Shown: positions 5,084 to 62,870, numbered from the stretch's first letter. The stretch is DNA of 64,000 bases from Escherichia coli (GCF_001677475.2 NZ_CP015229.1), one strand, 5' to 3'. Numbers and translations are program-made. The notes: generated by a model not told the origin, from the sequence alone.

Positions 5084-5806
5084 ATGAATGCCGAAAAATC
5101 GCCGGTAAACCATAACGTAGACCACGAAGAGATCGCTAAATTTGAAGCCGTCGCCTCCCGCTGGTGGGATCTTGAAGGTGAGTTCAAACCGCTGCACCGC
5201 ATTAACCCGCTGCGTCTGGGCTATATTGCCGAGCGTGCTGGCGGTTTATTTGGCAAAAAGGTGCTCGATGTCGGTTGTGGCGGCGGCATTCTGGCCGAGA
5301 GTATGGCGCGCGAAGGCGCGACGGTGACCGGTCTGGATATGGGCTTTGAGCCATTGCAGGTGGCGAAACTGCACGCACTGGAAAGCGGCATTCAGGTAGA
5401 TTACGTGCAGGAAACCGTGGAAGAGCACGCGGTAAAACATGCCGGGCAATATGATGTGGTGACCTGCATGGAGATGCTGGAGCACGTCCCCGATCCGCAG
5501 TCAGTGGTCAGAGCCTGTGCACAACTGGTGAAACCGGGCGGCGATGTCTTTTTCTCGACGCTTAACCGCAACGGCAAGTCATGGCTGATGGCGGTGGTTG
5601 GTGCGGAATATATTTTGCGCATGGTGCCTAAAGGCACGCATGATGTGAAGAAGTTTATTAAACCGGCAGAGCTGCTTGGCTGGGTAGATCAGACAAGCCT
5701 TAAAGAGCGACATATAACCGGGCTACATTACAACCCGATCACTAATTCCTTTAAGCTTGGCCCCGGCGTGGATGTGAACTATATGCTGCACACGCAGAAT
5801 AAATAA
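5084..5806 (+). CDS. ubiG: Bifunctional 3-demethylubiquinone / 2-polyprenyl-6-hydroxyphenol O-methyltransferase
   Basis: SAM-methyltransferase motif [13 protein letters not shown]; start set at ATG 5084 ([11 protein letters not shown]...), giving 240 aa rather than the longer ORF-track start. Confidence 0.93.
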
Positions 5807-5813
5807 AATTGTT

Positions 5814-5848
5814 TGCCGGATAAGGTGCTCGCACCACATCCGGCTACA
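5814..5848. repeat. REP-like palindromic element between ubiG and yfaL
   Basis: tgccggataagg...catccggctac with inverted GCCGGAT/ATCCGGC halves, resembling enterobacterial REP units. Confidence 0.45.
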
Positions 5849-5866
5849 ATGCCGGACGCAAAGCAG

Positions 5867-8800
5867 CTACCATTTCACCGTCATCGTCAAAAACCCTGTA
5901 GTCTGGGCAAAATCATCACTCCCTTTCTGCCACGCCATGCTACCACGCAGCGAAACTCGCTGACTGATATTGCCCGTTACTCCAACTTTTATTTCACCCC
6001 GTTGCTTCACCGCATCGTCACTGATAGTGCTGCCATCCTCTTCAATTTCCGTCGCATGGGGATCGTGATAATAATTCAGATCTAACGTTGGTGTGACATG
6101 AACAGCGGTACGCCATTCGCTGTGTAAACCCAGCCGCGTCTGAATATCATCACCCTGCGATTGTGACACGCGTGCATGGTTAGCGGCGGTAAAGTCATCC
6201 TGCAGCACGCCCTGATAAATCACCTGCGCCTGCGGTTCAATCACCACACCACGCTCCGGTAACCACTGATACCCCGCCTCCAGCGAGGCGATAATCCCCG
6301 ACGAGTGGTAATGATCTGTGCCATCGTCTTGTTCGGAAACATCATTGTTAAACCACGCGTATTGCAGCCAGCTATCCAGCCAGGCCCCCTGCTTCTGATT
6401 ACCGTGCTGAAACCAGCTTGAGGTCAGCCCAACGGCAAAACCGTGGTTCTGGTTATCGGCGCGAGTTCCAGTCATATTCGAGCGGCTGTCGCCCTGGTTA
6501 TCGCTGTAGCCACCTACAATCCCAAGCATCCACTCGCCATCATCGCCCCAGCGCCCCCTAAACAGGTCACCGCTAAGCTGCACCGTAGAAGTGTCTTCAT
6601 GCTGAGCCAGTTGCCTTGCCGCCGTGTAATGATAACGTCCGCCGATAACACGTAAATTCAGCGTCTGACCATCGCCACCAGCGTGATCGCGTCGCTCCAT
6701 CACAAACGCCTGATTTGCCGCCCGCAGGTTATTGAGATAACCGCCAACTTTGGCATTCAGCACCGGCTGGTAAGCGGGGATTGGATCGGGTGTTGGGTCA
6801 GGATCGGGTGTTGGGTCCGGGTCTGGATCAGGTGGCGATGGCGGCGTTACTTCTTGCGATCGCAGATACCAGTCGTTGTTATCTTCCACCAGCGTGTAGT
6901 CATACGCTCCCATGTTGACGTAGCCACTGCCTGCCAGACTGAACTGCGCATTGTTTTGAAACTGCGTGGGATCAGCTGCGAAATCAACCACTTTAATGCC
7001 TGTAGATGTCGGCTCACCAATCCCTGTAATGGGGTTAACCACAACCGTGGTATTGCCAGCAGTATTACCGTTCAACACCAACTGGTCGCTTGCTGAGTCA
7101 TCGCCGTTTAATTCGCTGTCGAGCAGTAACGTACCGCCGCCGGTGTAATCACCGTTTACCGTCAGCGTATCGCCAACGACGCCATTTTGCAGGCTAACCG
7201 CACCGGATGTATTGGTCAGATCACCATTAACCGTCACATCGGCAAGATAGGTCAGGTTGTCAGTTTCAAGGTTGGTATTAAGCTCACCTGTCAACGTCAC
7301 GCCATCGGTGGCATTCACCAGCGTCCCATCGCCGTTAAACAGTGAGGCATTAAGGGCGACAGAAGTATCCTGCCCGGTCAGGCGCAAAACCGTACCATCG
7401 CTGATGTCGATAGTGCCGCTGGAAGTAGCATCAATTGACTGAATATCCTGATCCGAGCCAGTAACGAACGTTGCCCCATCACCGACCCACAGTGACGAAG
7501 CATAAGGAAGAATATCCGCAACATCACCTTTCAGGGTGCCTTCTTCGACACGTACCGCCGACTGCGTTGTACCGCTGGCGGTCAGCTCCAGCGTGCCTGC
7601 ACCGGTTTTCGTCAGTGTGGTTCCCGCGTCCTGGTGCTGTCCACTGCTGTCGGCCATCAATGCGCCCCACTGCGTGTCGACCCCCGCATCAACTGCCACT
7701 TCACCGTCGGCGCGCATTTCAATATCACGCCCATGCTCAGTCGTTGTAGAGCGAGTATCGACATTGGCAGTAATCTCCATCACGCTTTCTTGTTGATTAT
7801 CGGTAAAGATAACCTGGCGGTTGTAATGGGTATCTCCAAGCTGCGAGTTGTCGCTCACCATCAGCGTACCGGAGGCGATTTGCGTTGTGCCGAGGTATTG
7901 ATTGTCATTTGCCAGGCTGACCTGCCCGTCACCCGCATCGATCACCACGTAGACGCCATCTTTCCCGTCGCCGCCGATATGCATATCGTTTCCGCCTGCA
8001 AGATCCACCACATCCTGACTGCCGATAACCGTACCGCCGTTGCCGCTGACTTCAAGGCCATCGTTGTATGATGTGCCGCTCTGCCAGGTGGAGAAATCAG
8101 AGAGATCGAGCACACCGCCGTTTAACACAATCGACTGCGGATCGTCCTGGAGAGCGGCAAGATCTGCCGCGTCGCCTTCCAGTGAAAGCACCGCACCATC
8201 ATCAACGACTATATCGCCGGTTAGCGCCATCGACTGCGCCCCCGCCAGCACATAGCTGCCGTTTTGCGCAATGGTGAGCTGACCAGCACCTTTGATGGTG
8301 CCAGCAAAACTGCCTTGATTAACAGTAACATTGCCACCAGCATCGATATTTAAAGTGCCATTCTGAAAGCCCGTCAATGAGTGCACAAAGGTTTGTTGGG
8401 TGGAGCCAACATTTAGCTCTGCCTGATTCTGGTACTTATCAATACTCCCTATCGTCAGACCGTAGCAGTCTTGCGGATCGTCCTGGCAATGCGTATCGCC
8501 GACATTCATCAGGGAGTTGCTGCGGCCCAGGGTAACTTCACCGTTTTCAATCTGCATCTCACCAGTAAAGTCATTGTTATCTGCATTAAGTACCAGATCG
8601 CCGGAACCTGTTTTGGTGATTAACCCGGTACCTGCAATAGAGTCAACAGCTCCGTCATTCTCTGTATTGCCGATAACCAGCGTTTTTCCGTCGGCAATAT
8701 CAAAGGTAACTTCACTTAAGCCGAGATACATAAAGCCACCCGCCGCAGTAGAAGGACCATCTCCATAGCCTGCTGCGCTATTGTTCTCATCCACTAACAC

Positions 8801-12582: not shown

Positions 12583-12608
12583 TAATCCCCCAGCCTTTGC
12601 ACCAAACC

Positions 12609-12648
12609 GTCCCCTCTCCCCTTGCGGGAGAGGGTTAGGGTGAGGGGT
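12609..12648. repeat. GC-rich palindromic element between nrdA and nrdB
   Basis: cccctctcccCTTGCgggagaggg followed by ttagggtgagggg; stem cctctccc/gggagagg. Confidence 0.4.
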
Positions 12649-12670
12649 AATAAAACCACAGGACACATTC

Positions 12671-14108: not shown

Positions 14109-14759
14109 TTACATGGCGTAGTAATACGCTTTCACCTGCTCCCAGTCCGCTTTGGGGATTGGCTCCAGATATTTTTCCAGCTGGCGGAAGTCATGATTAA
14201 TCGCTTTATTGCGACGCAAGCGGCGACGACTTTTCTCCAGGTCAAGAAAACCAGATTCTGCTTTACCTTCTGTTTTCACATAGATATGGCGAACATAACA
14301 ACAGCCATGCTGACGATTAACGCTATGCATTTTCTTAAACGCCAGTGCCACTGCTTTCAACATGGCTTGCCGTACTTCGTCAGAATAAGGCGATACTGCA
14401 TGCTGGGCATACCAGTCAGCAATGCTGATGAACCCCGCCATATCTTCAGTCACCAGCAACGCGCGCCATTCACCCTCAATTTTCACCGCTTCACCAAAAA
14501 CGATCTTCGGCACGATGACACCGGCCCGTTCTAGTTCTTTAATTACCGCAACCTCACGGACAATCGTTGGTCGGCCGAACGGATAACGTACAGAATGAAA
14601 CAGATGATGTGTCATGCGCTTTACATACAGCTTTTTGCCGTTGCGCTCGACGCATTGCACACCGCTCATACCATTACGGCGATAGTTAGGCTCTTCAACC
14701 CAGTCGCCCTCTGTTGCCCACCAGTGATTAAATTCGTCGTACTTTGCTGAAACTGCCAT
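14109..14759 (-). CDS. inaA: Acid-inducible, Mar/Sox/Rob-regulated lipopolysaccharide-kinase-like protein InaA
   Basis: 216-aa ORF MAVSAKYDEFNHWWATEGDWVEEPNYRRNGMSGVQ... ending ...VKAYYYAM. Confidence 0.9.
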   Translation of the reverse strand: MAVSAKYDEFNHWWATEGDWVEEPNYRRNGMSGVQCVERNGKKLYVKRMTHHLFHSVRYPFGRPTIVREVAVIKELERAGVIVPKIVFGEAVKIEGEWRALLVTEDMAGFISIADWYAQHAVSPYSDEVRQAMLKAVALAFKKMHSVNRQHGCCYVRHIYVKTEGKAESGFLDLEKSRRRLRRNKAINHDFRQLEKYLEPIPKADWEQVKAYYYAM

Positions 14760-14973
14760 ACCCTATTGCCTGTCGTTTTTATTAACGACAATGACTATAG
14801 GTGGTTACCTGAGGAAAATCTTAATGAAACGTGTCGTATTAATGAATTTCTTTTGCCGCTACTAGTGTGACACCGCTTTTGCCCTTCATTTGCAGCGCAT
14901 AGATTCCACCAGCCACTACCACTAATAGTGCGCCCAGCAGATAAAATGTGAATTTAATCAGGCGGATACAGCG

Positions 14974-15180
14974 ATGAATTTTATGCGACAGGGATTAGGC
15001 ATCGCCTTATTACCAGAGTTAACGCTGAAAACCATTGCAGGTGAATTGTGTTCCGTTCCTCACGAACCAATCTTCTATCGACAGATTTCGTTGTTGGCTA
15101 AAGAAAAGCCGGTAGAAGGCAGTCCACTGTTTTTACTACAAACGTGTACGGAACAACTCGTGGTGAGTGGAAAAATTTGA
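14974..15180 (+). pseudogene. yfaH: LysR-family regulator fragment (substrate-binding domain C-terminus only)
   Basis: 68-aa ORF ...GLGIALLPELTLK... typical of a LysR-type C-terminal domain; no HTH-encoding N-terminus upstream. Confidence 0.55.
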
Positions 15181-15248
15181 TGTGAGACATGAGATTGATG
15201 ACAAATGTAAGATTGCCTGATTCGCCACACTTAGTTGGCCTGTAGTCT

Positions 15249-15338
15249 TTACCATGCGTAATAATTCGTTTTCACCTGATTTTGGTCCACTTTGTGAATT
15301 AGCGATATATATTTATCCAATTTAGGGAAGTGACAATG
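15249..15338 (-). pseudogene. Decayed 3' remnant of an inaA paralog
   Basis: Minus-strand translation HCHFPKLDKYISLIHKVDQNQVKTNYYAW* aligns with the InaA C-terminus HDFRQLEKYLEPIPKADWEQVKAYYYAM*; DNA also aligns with 14111-14190; an in-frame stop lies just upstream. Confidence 0.5.
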
Positions 15339-15645
15339 ACTCCAGGTAGAAACCGGTATGAAGCGCCCGACTCACTGTCAAAACCGATTGTTGAGAGTAA
15401 TGACACTCCGGCGAACAGTACACAGTTTACTCTGGAGCCATTCTCAATCTGCAAGTGGGATGCCTAATAACTTGTCAGGGAAGTTATCAATATCTGTTTG
15501 TTACTTATTACCGTGTTTATTAACAATAATGATACTTTCTAACATGCGTAAAGGTCTTCGTAATAAAATGAGCTAAATTTGATAGTGAATATATTCTGCA
15601 AAGATTAAATTGTATCTAGTTAACTCACAATACAAGGAATCATTT

Positions 15646-16716
15646 ATGCCAAATACATCTATTCAATTATCTCGCTGTAATATTTTACAAAATAATAAAT
15701 TGCAAACAGCAGAAATTTACAAAGAATCACAACAAACCGCGAAACTTGAGATTTTTTGCAATGAGTTTCTAAAAATATCTCAAAGTAGATTCGGGTTATC
15801 AACCTCAGCAGACAACATAGCTAATTTATTGGCTTTTTTCACGAAAGCCTCAGATGAAATTGATAGTATCAAAACCCAAAAAATTGACGTTCACAGTTAT
15901 GGTTTCGTACCAATAAGACATTTTGTCGAGCATGTCATAACGTATAAAAATGAATTTGCAGAAGATTATGAACCCTATACCCTTACCTTTACCCGAGGTG
16001 AAAACAACGAAGGTGTTTTGAGTATCGAAAGCAAAGAAGGGTTTCTTTCAGAAAGAACAATAAATTTAAATGAATATGAAACTGCAATTAACATCATCAA
16101 TGAGCATGTTGCAAAAGAAAATATCAATAACAAGATCCAAACATTGACAGACAAAGACACACCAAAAATAACCAACTCTGACAAAATTTATAAATTTATC
16201 CACGAGTTAAATATAAGAACTCAACTTTACAGCAAGCAAAAAGAATATACAGACCTGCTACTACATTCTGAGAAAAATACAGAATGGTACAAATACACAT
16301 CCTCCGAGGAACGCTATGATGTATTTAAGAATTCTTCTAAAAAAATTGAAAATACCTACAAGCAAATTGTGCAAGCGCAGAAAAAATTGAAGCAAATGAA
16401 ATACATCAATAAATTAAGTGGTGAGCTTATCGATATCGCCGACAAAAAGTTAGCACCATTAATAAATGATAGTTTCAGCTATACACGAGATTTCTTTGCT
16501 TACTCAAAAAATGAAAAAAATATCTTCACATTTGATAATTCTAAGTTTTTAGATCCAAAGGAAAAAGAAGGTTTAATGATACAACACAGCAATGGGCAAC
16601 TGGTTATTACTGGTAAATATTGCCCTGAAGGTATGCAAACAGCATTCACCCAAGAACAATATGATAAATTAATAAGATACATTAATATTTTCTTTACTTT
16701 CCAGAAATGCGAATAA
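15646..16716 (+). CDS. Hypothetical protein, AT-rich orphan, Lys/Asn/Glu/Ile/Tyr-rich, no signal peptide or TM segment
   Basis: Long intact ORF in a visibly AT-rich segment; ATG at 15646 preceded by AAGGAA (ORF-track start 15610 is TTG); no family recognised. Confidence 0.6.
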   Translation: MPNTSIQLSRCNILQNNKLQTAEIYKESQQTAKLEIFCNEFLKISQSRFGLSTSADNIANLLAFFTKASDEIDSIKTQKIDVHSYGFVPIRHFVEHVITYKNEFAEDYEPYTLTFTRGENNEGVLSIESKEGFLSERTINLNEYETAINIINEHVAKENINNKIQTLTDKDTPKITNSDKIYKFIHELNIRTQLYSKQKEYTDLLLHSEKNTEWYKYTSSEERYDVFKNSSKKIENTYKQIVQAQKKLKQMKYINKLSGELIDIADKKLAPLINDSFSYTRDFFAYSKNEKNIFTFDNSKFLDPKEKEGLMIQHSNGQLVITGKYCPEGMQTAFTQEQYDKLIRYINIFFTFQKCE

Positions 16717-16903
16717 TACTGTACATTATAAACTGCATTACAATTTATTATTGAGCCCTATTCATACTGTTTAAAGAATAACAATACCCAGTGTTAGCTT
16801 TCCTAACAAATGAGTTTTACGCAAATATGTTGGCATCTTTTTTAACAGGATGCTCAGGTGAATGAATAGAATAACCGGTAGTAGCATTATTTCGCTTTAG
16901 CTG

Positions 16904-16927
16904 AGGATGGCGCATGAACGCCATCCT
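16904..16927. terminator. Hairpin downstream of glpQ (end of glpTQ operon)
   Basis: Inverted repeat aggatggcg/cgccatcct just 3' of the glpQ stop; weak T-run. Confidence 0.4.
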
Positions 16928-16936
16928 GCAGTAGCA

Positions 16937-18013
16937 TTACTCTTTATTAAGGAATTTTACTGCCTTATCAGGGAAATCAGTAAACAGCCCATTTACACCC
17001 GCTTTGTCATACAGAACATCATATAACTGATTCACATCAGTAGTGTATTCAGGCAGTTTATCTGACCGCACGGTATAAGGATGCACTACCAGTTTATTCT
17101 GCTGAGCATCTTGCACCATGCCAGTGAGTTTGATATTACCCGGCTGCGATGTCTCCTCAATCAACATATGGTAATCCGGGCCAATACCATCTGCATATTC
17201 CGCCACCTGTTTCATGGCACCCGGCTTAAACATCCAGTCGTAGTTGTAATTAACCCAGCTTCCGTCCGGCTGTTTCTGCTGCGTTTCATTCCAGTCGGTA
17301 TAGGCAATCAGCTGTACCAGATTGAGATCCATGCCCATTTTAGGTTCCAGCTCATTCTTAATACGCTTCAGCTCATCAGCATCAAAACATTGTAAATAAA
17401 CTTTGTCGTCCTTACCGGTGTAACCATATTTCTTCAGCACTTCCAGCGTTTTTGCCGCAATATCCTTCCCTTCCTGATGATGGAACCACGGTGCTTTAAT
17501 TTCTGGATAGATACCGATATTTTTCCCGGTAGAGTGATTTAACCCCTGAACAAATTCAATCTCTTCTTCAAAGGTGTGCACCCGGAAGTCGGACTTACCC
17601 ATTGGGAAACGCCCCGGATAAGTCTGCACTTTTTTACCGTTTTCAATATCGAAACCTTCGGTAAATTTCAGCGACTTAATTTCATCCAGCGTGAAATCTA
17701 TCGCGTAGTAACGACCGTCTTTGCGCGCCCGATCCGGGAAACGATCGGCAACATCAGTAACACGATCGAGGTAATGGTCATGCAGAACAACCAGATGGTC
17801 GTCTTTGGTCATCACCAAATCCTGTTCCAGATAATCCGCTCCCTGCGCATACGCCATCGCTTTTGCTGGCAGCGTATGCTCCGGCAAATATCCACTGGCA
17901 CCGCGATGGGCGATGACTATTTTTTCGTTGCTGTCCGCCGCCATTGCACTGCTTCCCATGACTATAGTGCTCATCATGATCGCCATGCTAAGGTTTTTCA
18001 GCGTCAATTTCAT
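16937..18013 (-). CDS. glpQ: Periplasmic glycerophosphodiester phosphodiesterase
   Basis: Start MKLTLKNLSMAIMMSTIVMGSSAMA (signal peptide), HRG catalytic motif; start trimmed from ORF-track 18070 to 18013. Confidence 0.95.
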   Translation of the reverse strand: MKLTLKNLSMAIMMSTIVMGSSAMAADSNEKIVIAHRGASGYLPEHTLPAKAMAYAQGADYLEQDLVMTKDDHLVVLHDHYLDRVTDVADRFPDRARKDGRYYAIDFTLDEIKSLKFTEGFDIENGKKVQTYPGRFPMGKSDFRVHTFEEEIEFVQGLNHSTGKNIGIYPEIKAPWFHHQEGKDIAAKTLEVLKKYGYTGKDDKVYLQCFDADELKRIKNELEPKMGMDLNLVQLIAYTDWNETQQKQPDGSWVNYNYDWMFKPGAMKQVAEYADGIGPDYHMLIEETSQPGNIKLTGMVQDAQQNKLVVHPYTVRSDKLPEYTTDVNQLYDVLYDKAGVNGLFTDFPDKAVKFLNKE

Positions 18014-62824: not shown

Positions 62825-62870
62825 GCTTCCAGTTTTCTCAGTCAGAGACTGAGCGTTAATCGAAATTCGG

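Follow-up and report, generated by a model that had tools for sequence, protein, structure and literature searches.

The stretch of Escherichia coli chromosome analyzed here (64,000 nt, GC 0.506; referred to as the window throughout) carries, between inaA and glpQ, a foreign, E. coli-restricted and dispensable gene for a soluble protein, inserted just before a hairpin shared by the genes on either side. The gene is an intact open reading frame (ORF) of 356 codons plus stop (15646–16716, plus strand), and it lies in an inserted segment of 1715 bp with 33% GC (15190–16904, plus strand). Gene order across the window is nrdA-nrdB-yfaE (plus strand), inaA (minus), two gene remnants, the ORF (plus), glpQ-glpT (minus) and glpA (plus). 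The exact protein of the window is on deposit as ANO90032.1 and was found on 14 contigs; databases already list the ORF as a hypothetical protein, which no study has yet addressed. The account that we favor, with moderate confidence, combines the insertion itself, its polarity, the distribution and orphan status of the gene, the maintenance of its frame and its weak constraint with an inferred mode of expression and, at much lower confidence, a conflict-type role.

Alignment against empty sites placed both ends of the inserted segment to within 1 nt. The insert begins after ...TGA-TGTGAGACA, which is the stop codon of a gene for a LysR-family regulator plus 9 nt, and ends at a hairpin located ahead of the glpQ stop. 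This ancestral hairpin, GGATGGCG-CATGAA-CGCCATCC (16905–16926), lies between the convergent LysR gene and glpQ (16937–18013, minus strand), a core gene that is also convergent with the ORF, and it now stands 3′ of the inserted ORF. In K-12, E. coli EC2257 and Escherichia albertii the hairpin is found directly 3′ of the LysR stop region, and the empty junction, ...TGA-TGTGAGACA joined to the GGATGGCG hairpin, is identical in all three. EC2257 retains intact genes for LysR and for an adjacent major facilitator superfamily (MFS) transporter, with the ORF absent, and in Salmonella enterica and Citrobacter freundii the order is MFS-LysR-glpQ with a LysR-glpQ gap of merely 60–115 bp. The occurrence of the same empty site in E. 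coli strains and in the outgroups indicates that the empty site is ancestral and that the segment is an insertion, and its absence from E. albertii, Salmonella and Citrobacter indicates that the insert is derived within E. coli. As expected of a strain-specific islet of the O-island type, the 1715-bp segment was precisely absent from K-12 RP437 and present in O157:H7, with clean junctions in the comparison. An AT-rich orphan gene of acquired origin had been proposed from the sequence of the window, and the insertion, with its identical empty site in the outgroups and in many E. coli, agrees with that proposal.

The MFS-LysR pair (intact or deleted) and the ORF (present or absent) were found in all four possible combinations. 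The two indels are therefore independent of each other and have been reassorted by recombination. The original prediction had suggested insertion into, or replacement of, older genes at this position; the empty sites established insertion, and the four combinations ruled out disruption or replacement. The insertion is intergenic, with nothing disrupted or replaced. A fifth state of the locus was seen in strains NR319 and A36, in which inaA is followed by glpQ after ~200 bp and MFS, LysR and ORF are all gone. None of the alternative locus states holds other cargo. Scans for repeats and tandem repeats at 15190 and 16904 detected no terminal repeats, target-site duplication, transposase or attC-like element, and no integrase, insertion sequence (IS) element or repeats were found among the neighbors of the locus in the window. 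In these respects the insert differs from a transposable element, an integron cassette or a miniature inverted-repeat transposable element, as it has no terminal inverted repeats, target-site duplication, attC-like hairpin or transposase. The 3′ non-coding tail of the insert (16717–16904, plus strand; nucleotide diversity π 0.059, 5 gap columns) contained no inverted repeat. We also considered this tail as a duplicate of the glpQ end and rejected the idea, as the similarity was non-significant (32 of 500 shuffles scored as high).

The composition of the ORF sets it apart from the core genes around it. GC was 0.313 overall and 0.300 at third codon positions (GC3), compared to 0.458 and 0.504 for glpQ and 0.509 and 0.637 for nrdB; the flanking genes as a group span GC 0.46–0.53 and GC3 0.50–0.64. 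Along the sequence, GC dips to 0.28–0.34 over 15500–16850, with neighbors at ~0.50. An AAGGAA ribosome-binding site (15634–15639) lies 6 nt ahead of the ATG. The stop-free run at the ORF extends over 375 codons, and the longest run among 2000 shuffles of the insert was 165 codons, from which we conclude that the ORF did not arise by chance. The predicted product (~41.7 kDa, pI 6.4, grand average of hydropathy –0.67) is enriched in K, I, E, N, T and Y. Hydropathy peaks at just 0.63 (19-residue Kyte-Doolittle window), and for this reason we assign the product no transmembrane segment. The original prediction had described an intact frame of about 356 codons with an AAGGAA ribosome-binding site, more AT-rich than its core neighbors, encoding a product rich in Lys, Asn, Glu, Ile and Tyr and free of transmembrane segments; all of this held when coordinates, GC and GC3 (0.31 and 0.30), composition and hydropathy were computed.

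Searches for relatives used the full protein, an 8-sequence profile and three sub-regions. Queried by a word-indexed method, 5.8 billion protein clusters gave 23 matches, all from E. coli and 82–99% identical. HMMER, run in full against 1.84 billion cluster representatives, found 12 matches, all of them fragments, frameshift products or chimeras of the same gene. Apart from low-complexity noise, nothing emerged from Pfam (E up to 10), NCBIfam, PHROGs, PADLOC or PDB sequences, in keeping with the earlier remark that the protein belongs to no recognizable family; PDB sequences, queried with the protein, with the profile and with the N-terminal domain, yielded nothing relevant. The matches that we dismissed as noise all fell in the Lys/Glu/Asn-rich region: NadM-Nudix (E = 0.068), a PHROG phosphatase (E = 0.12), GreA (E = 0.003, 15 bits against a cut-off of 714) and, in PADLOC, JetA (12 bits, E = 0.019), which lay on a Lys-rich helix. 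JetA was the sole PADLOC match for the three sub-regions, and the full protein matched 0 PADLOC families at E up to 1. With E. coli matches alone, at ≥82% identity, the ORF qualifies as a taxonomically restricted (orphan) gene.

Structure prediction added little to this picture. The AlphaFold2 models were unusable, as the mean predicted local distance difference test (pLDDT) score reached 44.8 when the full length was modeled from the 8-sequence alignment and 40.4 when the C-terminal 157 aa were modeled. A Foldseek search of the PDB with the AlphaFold2 model returned no match below E = 0.1. With pLDDT at 40–45 and no Foldseek match, these tools permit no structure-based inference; in the same searches, by profile and by Foldseek, no confident match to a housekeeping family was found. 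The secondary-structure sketch, which is no more than indicative, consists of helices over residues 1–105, a small sheet and helix at 110–160, an unstructured linker, a long helix at 216–272 and then a beta-rich C-terminus with a last helix. An internal duplication of beta-beta-beta-alpha modules (aa 95–170 against 270–356) was tried and found unsupported (hhalign E = 0.22).

The ORF was present in 1052 of 5426 complete E. coli genomes (19%), invariably chromosomal, single-copy and at this locus, so that the pangenome check proposed with the original prediction returned a presence/absence polymorphism and not a gene universal in E. coli. Carriers include O157:H7, O55:H7, enteroaggregative E. 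coli (EAEC) 042 and avian pathogenic E. coli (APEC) O78. The allele type of the window is rare, with 21 genomes ≥95% identical over the insert and a top identity of 97.7%. No genuine counterpart of the insert was found in phage genomes, plasmids or IMG/VR; the sole PLSDB match, NZ_CP141089.1, is a 4.9-Mb E. coli chromosome filed as a plasmid. A scan of GTDB, with one representative genome per species, gave a single match, to a 3.5-kb contig (JAIJJM010000334.1) of a ‘Collinsella sp.’ metagenome-assembled genome. This contig is 99.97% identical to E. coli DNA, and we therefore regard it as mis-binned. The presence/absence polymorphism is old; its alleles are deep, and recombination has made the insert a mosaic. 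In strain 2013C-4282, glpQ (locus 5737–6813) differs from that of the window by 6.7% and its adjacent ORF is 99.3% identical, a contrast from which a breakpoint of recombination can be deduced at, or close to, the shared terminator hairpin.

We examined frame maintenance in the alleles without IS1, 15 in all (the window and 14 further loci). The 356-codon frame is intact in 14 of the 15 despite up to 7% divergence, and the remaining allele, from strain N96, has a stop at codon 286. For the deepest allele pair, which differs at 79 positions, the frame stayed open in 4% of random-substitution runs with the observed spectrum. One nonsense allele was seen versus ~5.4 expected (Poisson P = 0.029); the expectation is our own estimate, obtained from the per-substitution stop rate and the 136 segregating sites. 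Indel columns were also depleted, with 2 in the 1071-bp ORF compared to 7 in 644 bp of non-coding DNA of the insert (Fisher P = 0.03). The sole indels in the ORF are those of O157, a –1/+1 pair at two A-runs 30 nt apart, after which the frame is regained with 10 altered residues. Constraint on the amino-acid sequence was weak and uneven: the ratio of nonsynonymous to synonymous diversity (πN/πS) was 0.56 overall, 0.84 for aa 1–105, ~0.6 for aa 106–215 and 0.39 for aa 216–356, and glpQ in the same genomes gave 0.047. Segregating sites were distributed 52/36/48 over the three codon positions, with no overall third-position excess (P = 0.22); the C-terminal part (16/10/24) showed a hint of such an excess (P = 0.05). 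In our reading, selection keeps the frame open, most clearly for the C-terminal half, with many amino-acid changes tolerated and the gene readily lost.

Loss and inactivation took several forms. In 225 genomes (example locus 5233–5930) the ORF is split, at about codon 260, by one and the same IS1 insertion; from their strain names we take these genomes to be an ST410-like clone of clinical strains. An A-run frameshift shortens the product to 208 aa in a cluster of 541 sequences. In E. coli 042 a deletion of 481 bp took away the LysR C-terminus together with most of the upstream region and left the ORF intact; what remains of the LysR gene is now joined to a position 126 bp ahead of the ORF. 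RefSeq/PGAP calls the ORF ‘frameshifted’ in nearly all non-O157 genomes despite the intact 356-codon frame. This label arises because the O157 reference, WP_001301786.1, itself bears the compensated –1/+1 frameshift.

Diversity varied sharply along the insert. A hypervariable central segment (aa 161–215; 16126–16290, plus strand) had π of 0.12 with a peak of 0.18 and falls into two deep allele types. Window-type and O157-type alleles differ by 19–20% at the nucleotide level in this segment and by 4–7% elsewhere in the gene. The A-runs at ~16238 and ~16272, the sites of the compensated O157 frameshift, lie within it. Both πS (0.20) and πN (0.12) are raised here, so the pattern resembles that of an old or imported stretch of allele more closely than the product of positive selection alone. 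The least diverse part of the insert is the 310 bp upstream of the ORF (15336–15645), with π of 0.015–0.022 compared to 0.056–0.059 for the other non-coding parts. This low diversity could reflect either a regulatory function or a recent recombination tract. The 310 bp comprise a 43-codon ORF (15336–15467, plus strand), preceded by a GGAG/GGGAAG Shine-Dalgarno-like sequence and sometimes called a hypothetical protein, and a candidate leader or promoter region of the main ORF (15468–15645, plus strand), which has low diversity and includes the ribosome-binding site. All of the 14 alleles keep the 43-codon ORF open; with 8 nonsynonymous changes to 3 synonymous, however, coding is not demonstrated. 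As a possible toxin-antitoxin partner, it stands 178 bp upstream of the ORF with the same 8:3 changes, and in 042 it is deleted with the main ORF intact. No tandem repeats of the type III toxin-antitoxin kind were found in the insert. A search of the region and of the whole window placed no Rfam family in or near the insert, and the leader gave no stable RNA fold (z = 0.17).

The insert occupies what was the 3′ untranslated end of the LysR transcription unit. The terminator scan predicted no terminator between LysR and the ORF, and for this reason read-through from the LysR promoter is the simplest expression route where LysR is intact. In the strain of the window the LysR promoter is deleted, so that any expression there would have to come from the conserved ~300 bp upstream of the ORF. 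In strains of this kind, where LysR is not intact, the ORF is probably expressed from a weak promoter within those ~300 bp. Repression by H-NS is the usual fate of AT-rich foreign genes in E. coli, and we infer that the upstream promoter is probably silenced by H-NS-type proteins. As for the role of the product, our best guess, and a doubtful one, is that it may act as a stand-alone cytoplasmic accessory factor of the conflict type, directed against phage or other mobile DNA; conflict-type genes are the best fit to its generic signature of AT-richness, patchy distribution, a hypervariable segment, fast evolution and frequent loss.

Several observations weigh against the account that we favor. 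The conflict role is drawn solely from generic hallmarks, namely AT-richness, presence/absence polymorphism, a hypervariable region and fast evolution. On the plus strand ahead of the ORF the promoter scan found no consensus sigma-70 promoter, and the upstream region may owe its low diversity to a recent recombination tract and not to constraint. The frame-maintenance tests each reach only P ~0.03 with 15 sampled alleles, and the πN/πS near 0.8 of the N-terminal third, together with within-group ratios ≥1, fits drift towards loss. The last point leads directly to the first alternative, a functionless relic: the gene would have been functional in its donor, would have had no role since arrival in E. 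coli and would be decaying slowly, with too little time passed for the frame to be lost. In its favor are the high πN/πS (0.56 overall, 0.84 in the N-terminal third, ≥1 between close alleles), segregating sites without a third-position excess, a series of independent inactivations (IS1 in the 225 genomes, the N96 stop, the 208-aa cluster and the promoter-region deletion in 042), complete loss of the insert or ORF in most lineages and the lack of a recognizable promoter. It accounts poorly for a frame that is open in 14 of 15 divergent alleles, with a chance of 0.04 for the deep pair, and for the deficits of nonsense changes and of indels, the latter relative to the flanking non-coding DNA (P = 0.029 and P = 0.03). 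The C-terminal πN/πS of 0.39 is below neutral, and the O157 compensating shift 10 codons downstream indicates that the C-terminal half matters. On balance we judge a functionless relic unlikely, if far from negligible. We give virtually no credence to the further idea that the ORF is a chance frame or annotation artefact and that the functional element lies elsewhere in the insert, be it a small RNA, a regulatory site or the 43-codon ORF. The upstream 310 bp are less diverse than the ORF, and the 43-codon ORF with its Shine-Dalgarno-like sequence is open in every one of the 14 alleles, as this idea would have it; a 375-codon run in DNA of 31% GC, however, never occurred in the 2000 shuffles (maximum 165), no Rfam match or stable fold (z = 0.17) was found, and the 43-codon ORF shows the 8:3 ratio of changes and is deleted in 042, which keeps the 356-codon ORF.

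Two more specific roles can be set beside the general conflict-type factor that we prefer. The original prediction had raised a defense, abortive-infection (Abi) or toxin function. This found no support: PADLOC gave 0 matches, there is no defense island and there are no mobility genes (the neighbors are nrdAB-yfaE-inaA, the MFS and LysR remnants and glpQT), and the insert does not occur in phages or plasmids. In its most concrete form the protein would be a single-protein Abi, anti-phage or toxin factor such as a HEPN-like RNase, with R91-x4-H96 in a four-helix N-terminal domain and dimerization through the central helix. The gene is indeed AT-rich, solitary, polymorphic in its presence and fast-evolving, with a hypervariable segment. 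The motif R91-H-F-V-E-H96 (IRHFVEH; 15916–15933, plus strand), at the start of the fourth predicted helix, is present as had been pointed out, and the R-H-x-V-x-H pattern suits the HEPN consensus R[NHD]xxxH. The motif does not vary among the 8 aligned proteins or in three further full translations, and with a polar second residue it arose by chance in only 3.6% of shuffled proteins. Plain R-x4-H, on the other hand, occurred in 16% of shuffled versions of the protein, in line with the caution, voiced from the outset, that the motif is weak and possibly due to chance. The invariance of the motif matches the low diversity of the whole N-terminal segment, a region whose πN/πS is 0.84. PADLOC (v2) gave 0 matches with the whole protein and with the N-terminal part at E up to 10; Pfam (E up to 10) and NCBIfam contained no HEPN or other family, and the N-terminal 111 aa found nothing relevant in NCBIfam, PADLOC or the PDB. 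The AlphaFold2 helices at 5–16, 21–49, 55–77 and 90–104 are unreliable (pLDDT 31–39 for the N-terminal part, 27–39 over residues 1–90), the locus is no defense island, and no phage, plasmid or IMG/VR contig carries the insert. Compared to HEPN Abi and toxin RNases (Rx4-6H), the likeness comes down to just this short motif in a predicted all-helical N-terminus of ~105 residues; the differences are that the protein matches no HEPN or defense profile, that its fold prediction is unreliable and that its N-terminus is without detectable amino-acid constraint. We consider a HEPN-like RNase improbable. A type III effector is suggested solely by the composition, the polar N-terminus and the neighboring regulator of the enterocyte-effacement locus (LEE). 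Non-phage type III effector islets of E. coli are known from EspX/EspY/EspL/EspR-type loci. Like these, the ORF is a small AT-rich single-gene islet between core genes, patchy in distribution and often degraded, and it adjoins a regulator of LEE expression. Unlike these, it has no effector-family relationship, is kept in lineages without the regulator and is known here from sequence alone. Such a role is argued against by the lack of similarity to effector families in Pfam and NCBIfam, by the intact ORF where MFS/LysR is deleted, as in the window, by the IS1 disruption in the 225-genome clone and by the presence of the ORF in many strains of commensal or extraintestinal pathogenic (ExPEC) type. 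Published complementation also counts against a type III effector, in that z3495 alone restored the phenotypes described. We consider such a role very unlikely. The reverse primer for the delta-OI-97/delta-z3495 mutants anneals from the LysR stop region into the insert, covering its first ~30 nt, at window ~15182–15221 (PMC10819331, Table S3), and this position places the resistance cassette of those mutants directly upstream of z3496.

The two gene remnants upstream of the insert have a history of their own. One is the 3′ remnant of the MFS transporter gene (14839–14945, minus strand), which retains the last 35 codons and matches the 3′ end of the O157 MFS gene with 95.5% identity by blastn. 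Its translation, FYLLGALLVVVAGGIYALQMKGKSGVTLVAAKEIH*, agrees with the O157:H7 MFS C-terminus, and the equivalent segment is annotated in RefSeq as a partial pseudogene. This remnant had been read as the tail of an inaA paralog, which proved mistaken, as an MFS transporter C-terminus is unrelated to inaA. The accompanying suggestion of a LysR-type fragment was right: the last 82 codons of a LysR-family gene are present (14933–15180, plus strand). The truncation of MFS and LysR in the window is the same deletion as in K-12 (yfaH pseudogene region). From the 13-nt overlap between the MFS- and LysR-homologous segments, the deletion, of ~1.87 kb, was evidently mediated by microhomology. The MFS-LysR pair was found in 1233 genomes, and the MFS gene of E. 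coli 042 has an internal stop.

Further features of the neighborhood were noted in passing. Neither E. albertii nor Salmonella nor Citrobacter has inaA (window 14109–14759) in the interval from yfaE to the MFS gene; its absence from all three outgroups makes it appear a second, separate insertion at the locus on the E. coli side. The nrdA-nrdB spacer differs in length among strains, from 88 bp in the window (12583–12670) through 146 bp in several E. coli strains and 233 bp in K-12 to 314 bp in E. albertii, and short ORFs spanning it resemble translated repeat elements. In O157:H7 FRIK2455, glpQ (locus 5739–6815) is interrupted by a stop at codon 286 and carries a pseudogene annotation. The sole Rfam match above the gathering threshold in the window was the nuoG RNA motif (62826–62868, minus strand, 50.3 bits).

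The ORF joins the large class of lineage-restricted orphan genes found on small E. coli islets. Like other orphan, xenogeneic, AT-rich islet genes, it has no homologue outside the species group (among ~15 billion proteins), its GC is far under the genome average, it has no mobility genes and is polymorphic in presence, and it is fast-evolving, weakly constrained and often inactivated. Unlike them, its insertion point and ancestral empty site are resolved to the nucleotide via the outgroups, and its polymorphism goes back far, as its deep alleles and the mosaic recombination within the insert show. The locus therefore offers a well-resolved example of an old single-gene insertion, with a nucleotide-exact empty site, a long-lived polymorphism and a mosaic of alleles. 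It also exposes an annotation artefact, the RefSeq ‘frameshifted’ calls on intact alleles. In our reading of the alleles, the gene further provides an example of selection that keeps a frame open with little constraint on its sequence.

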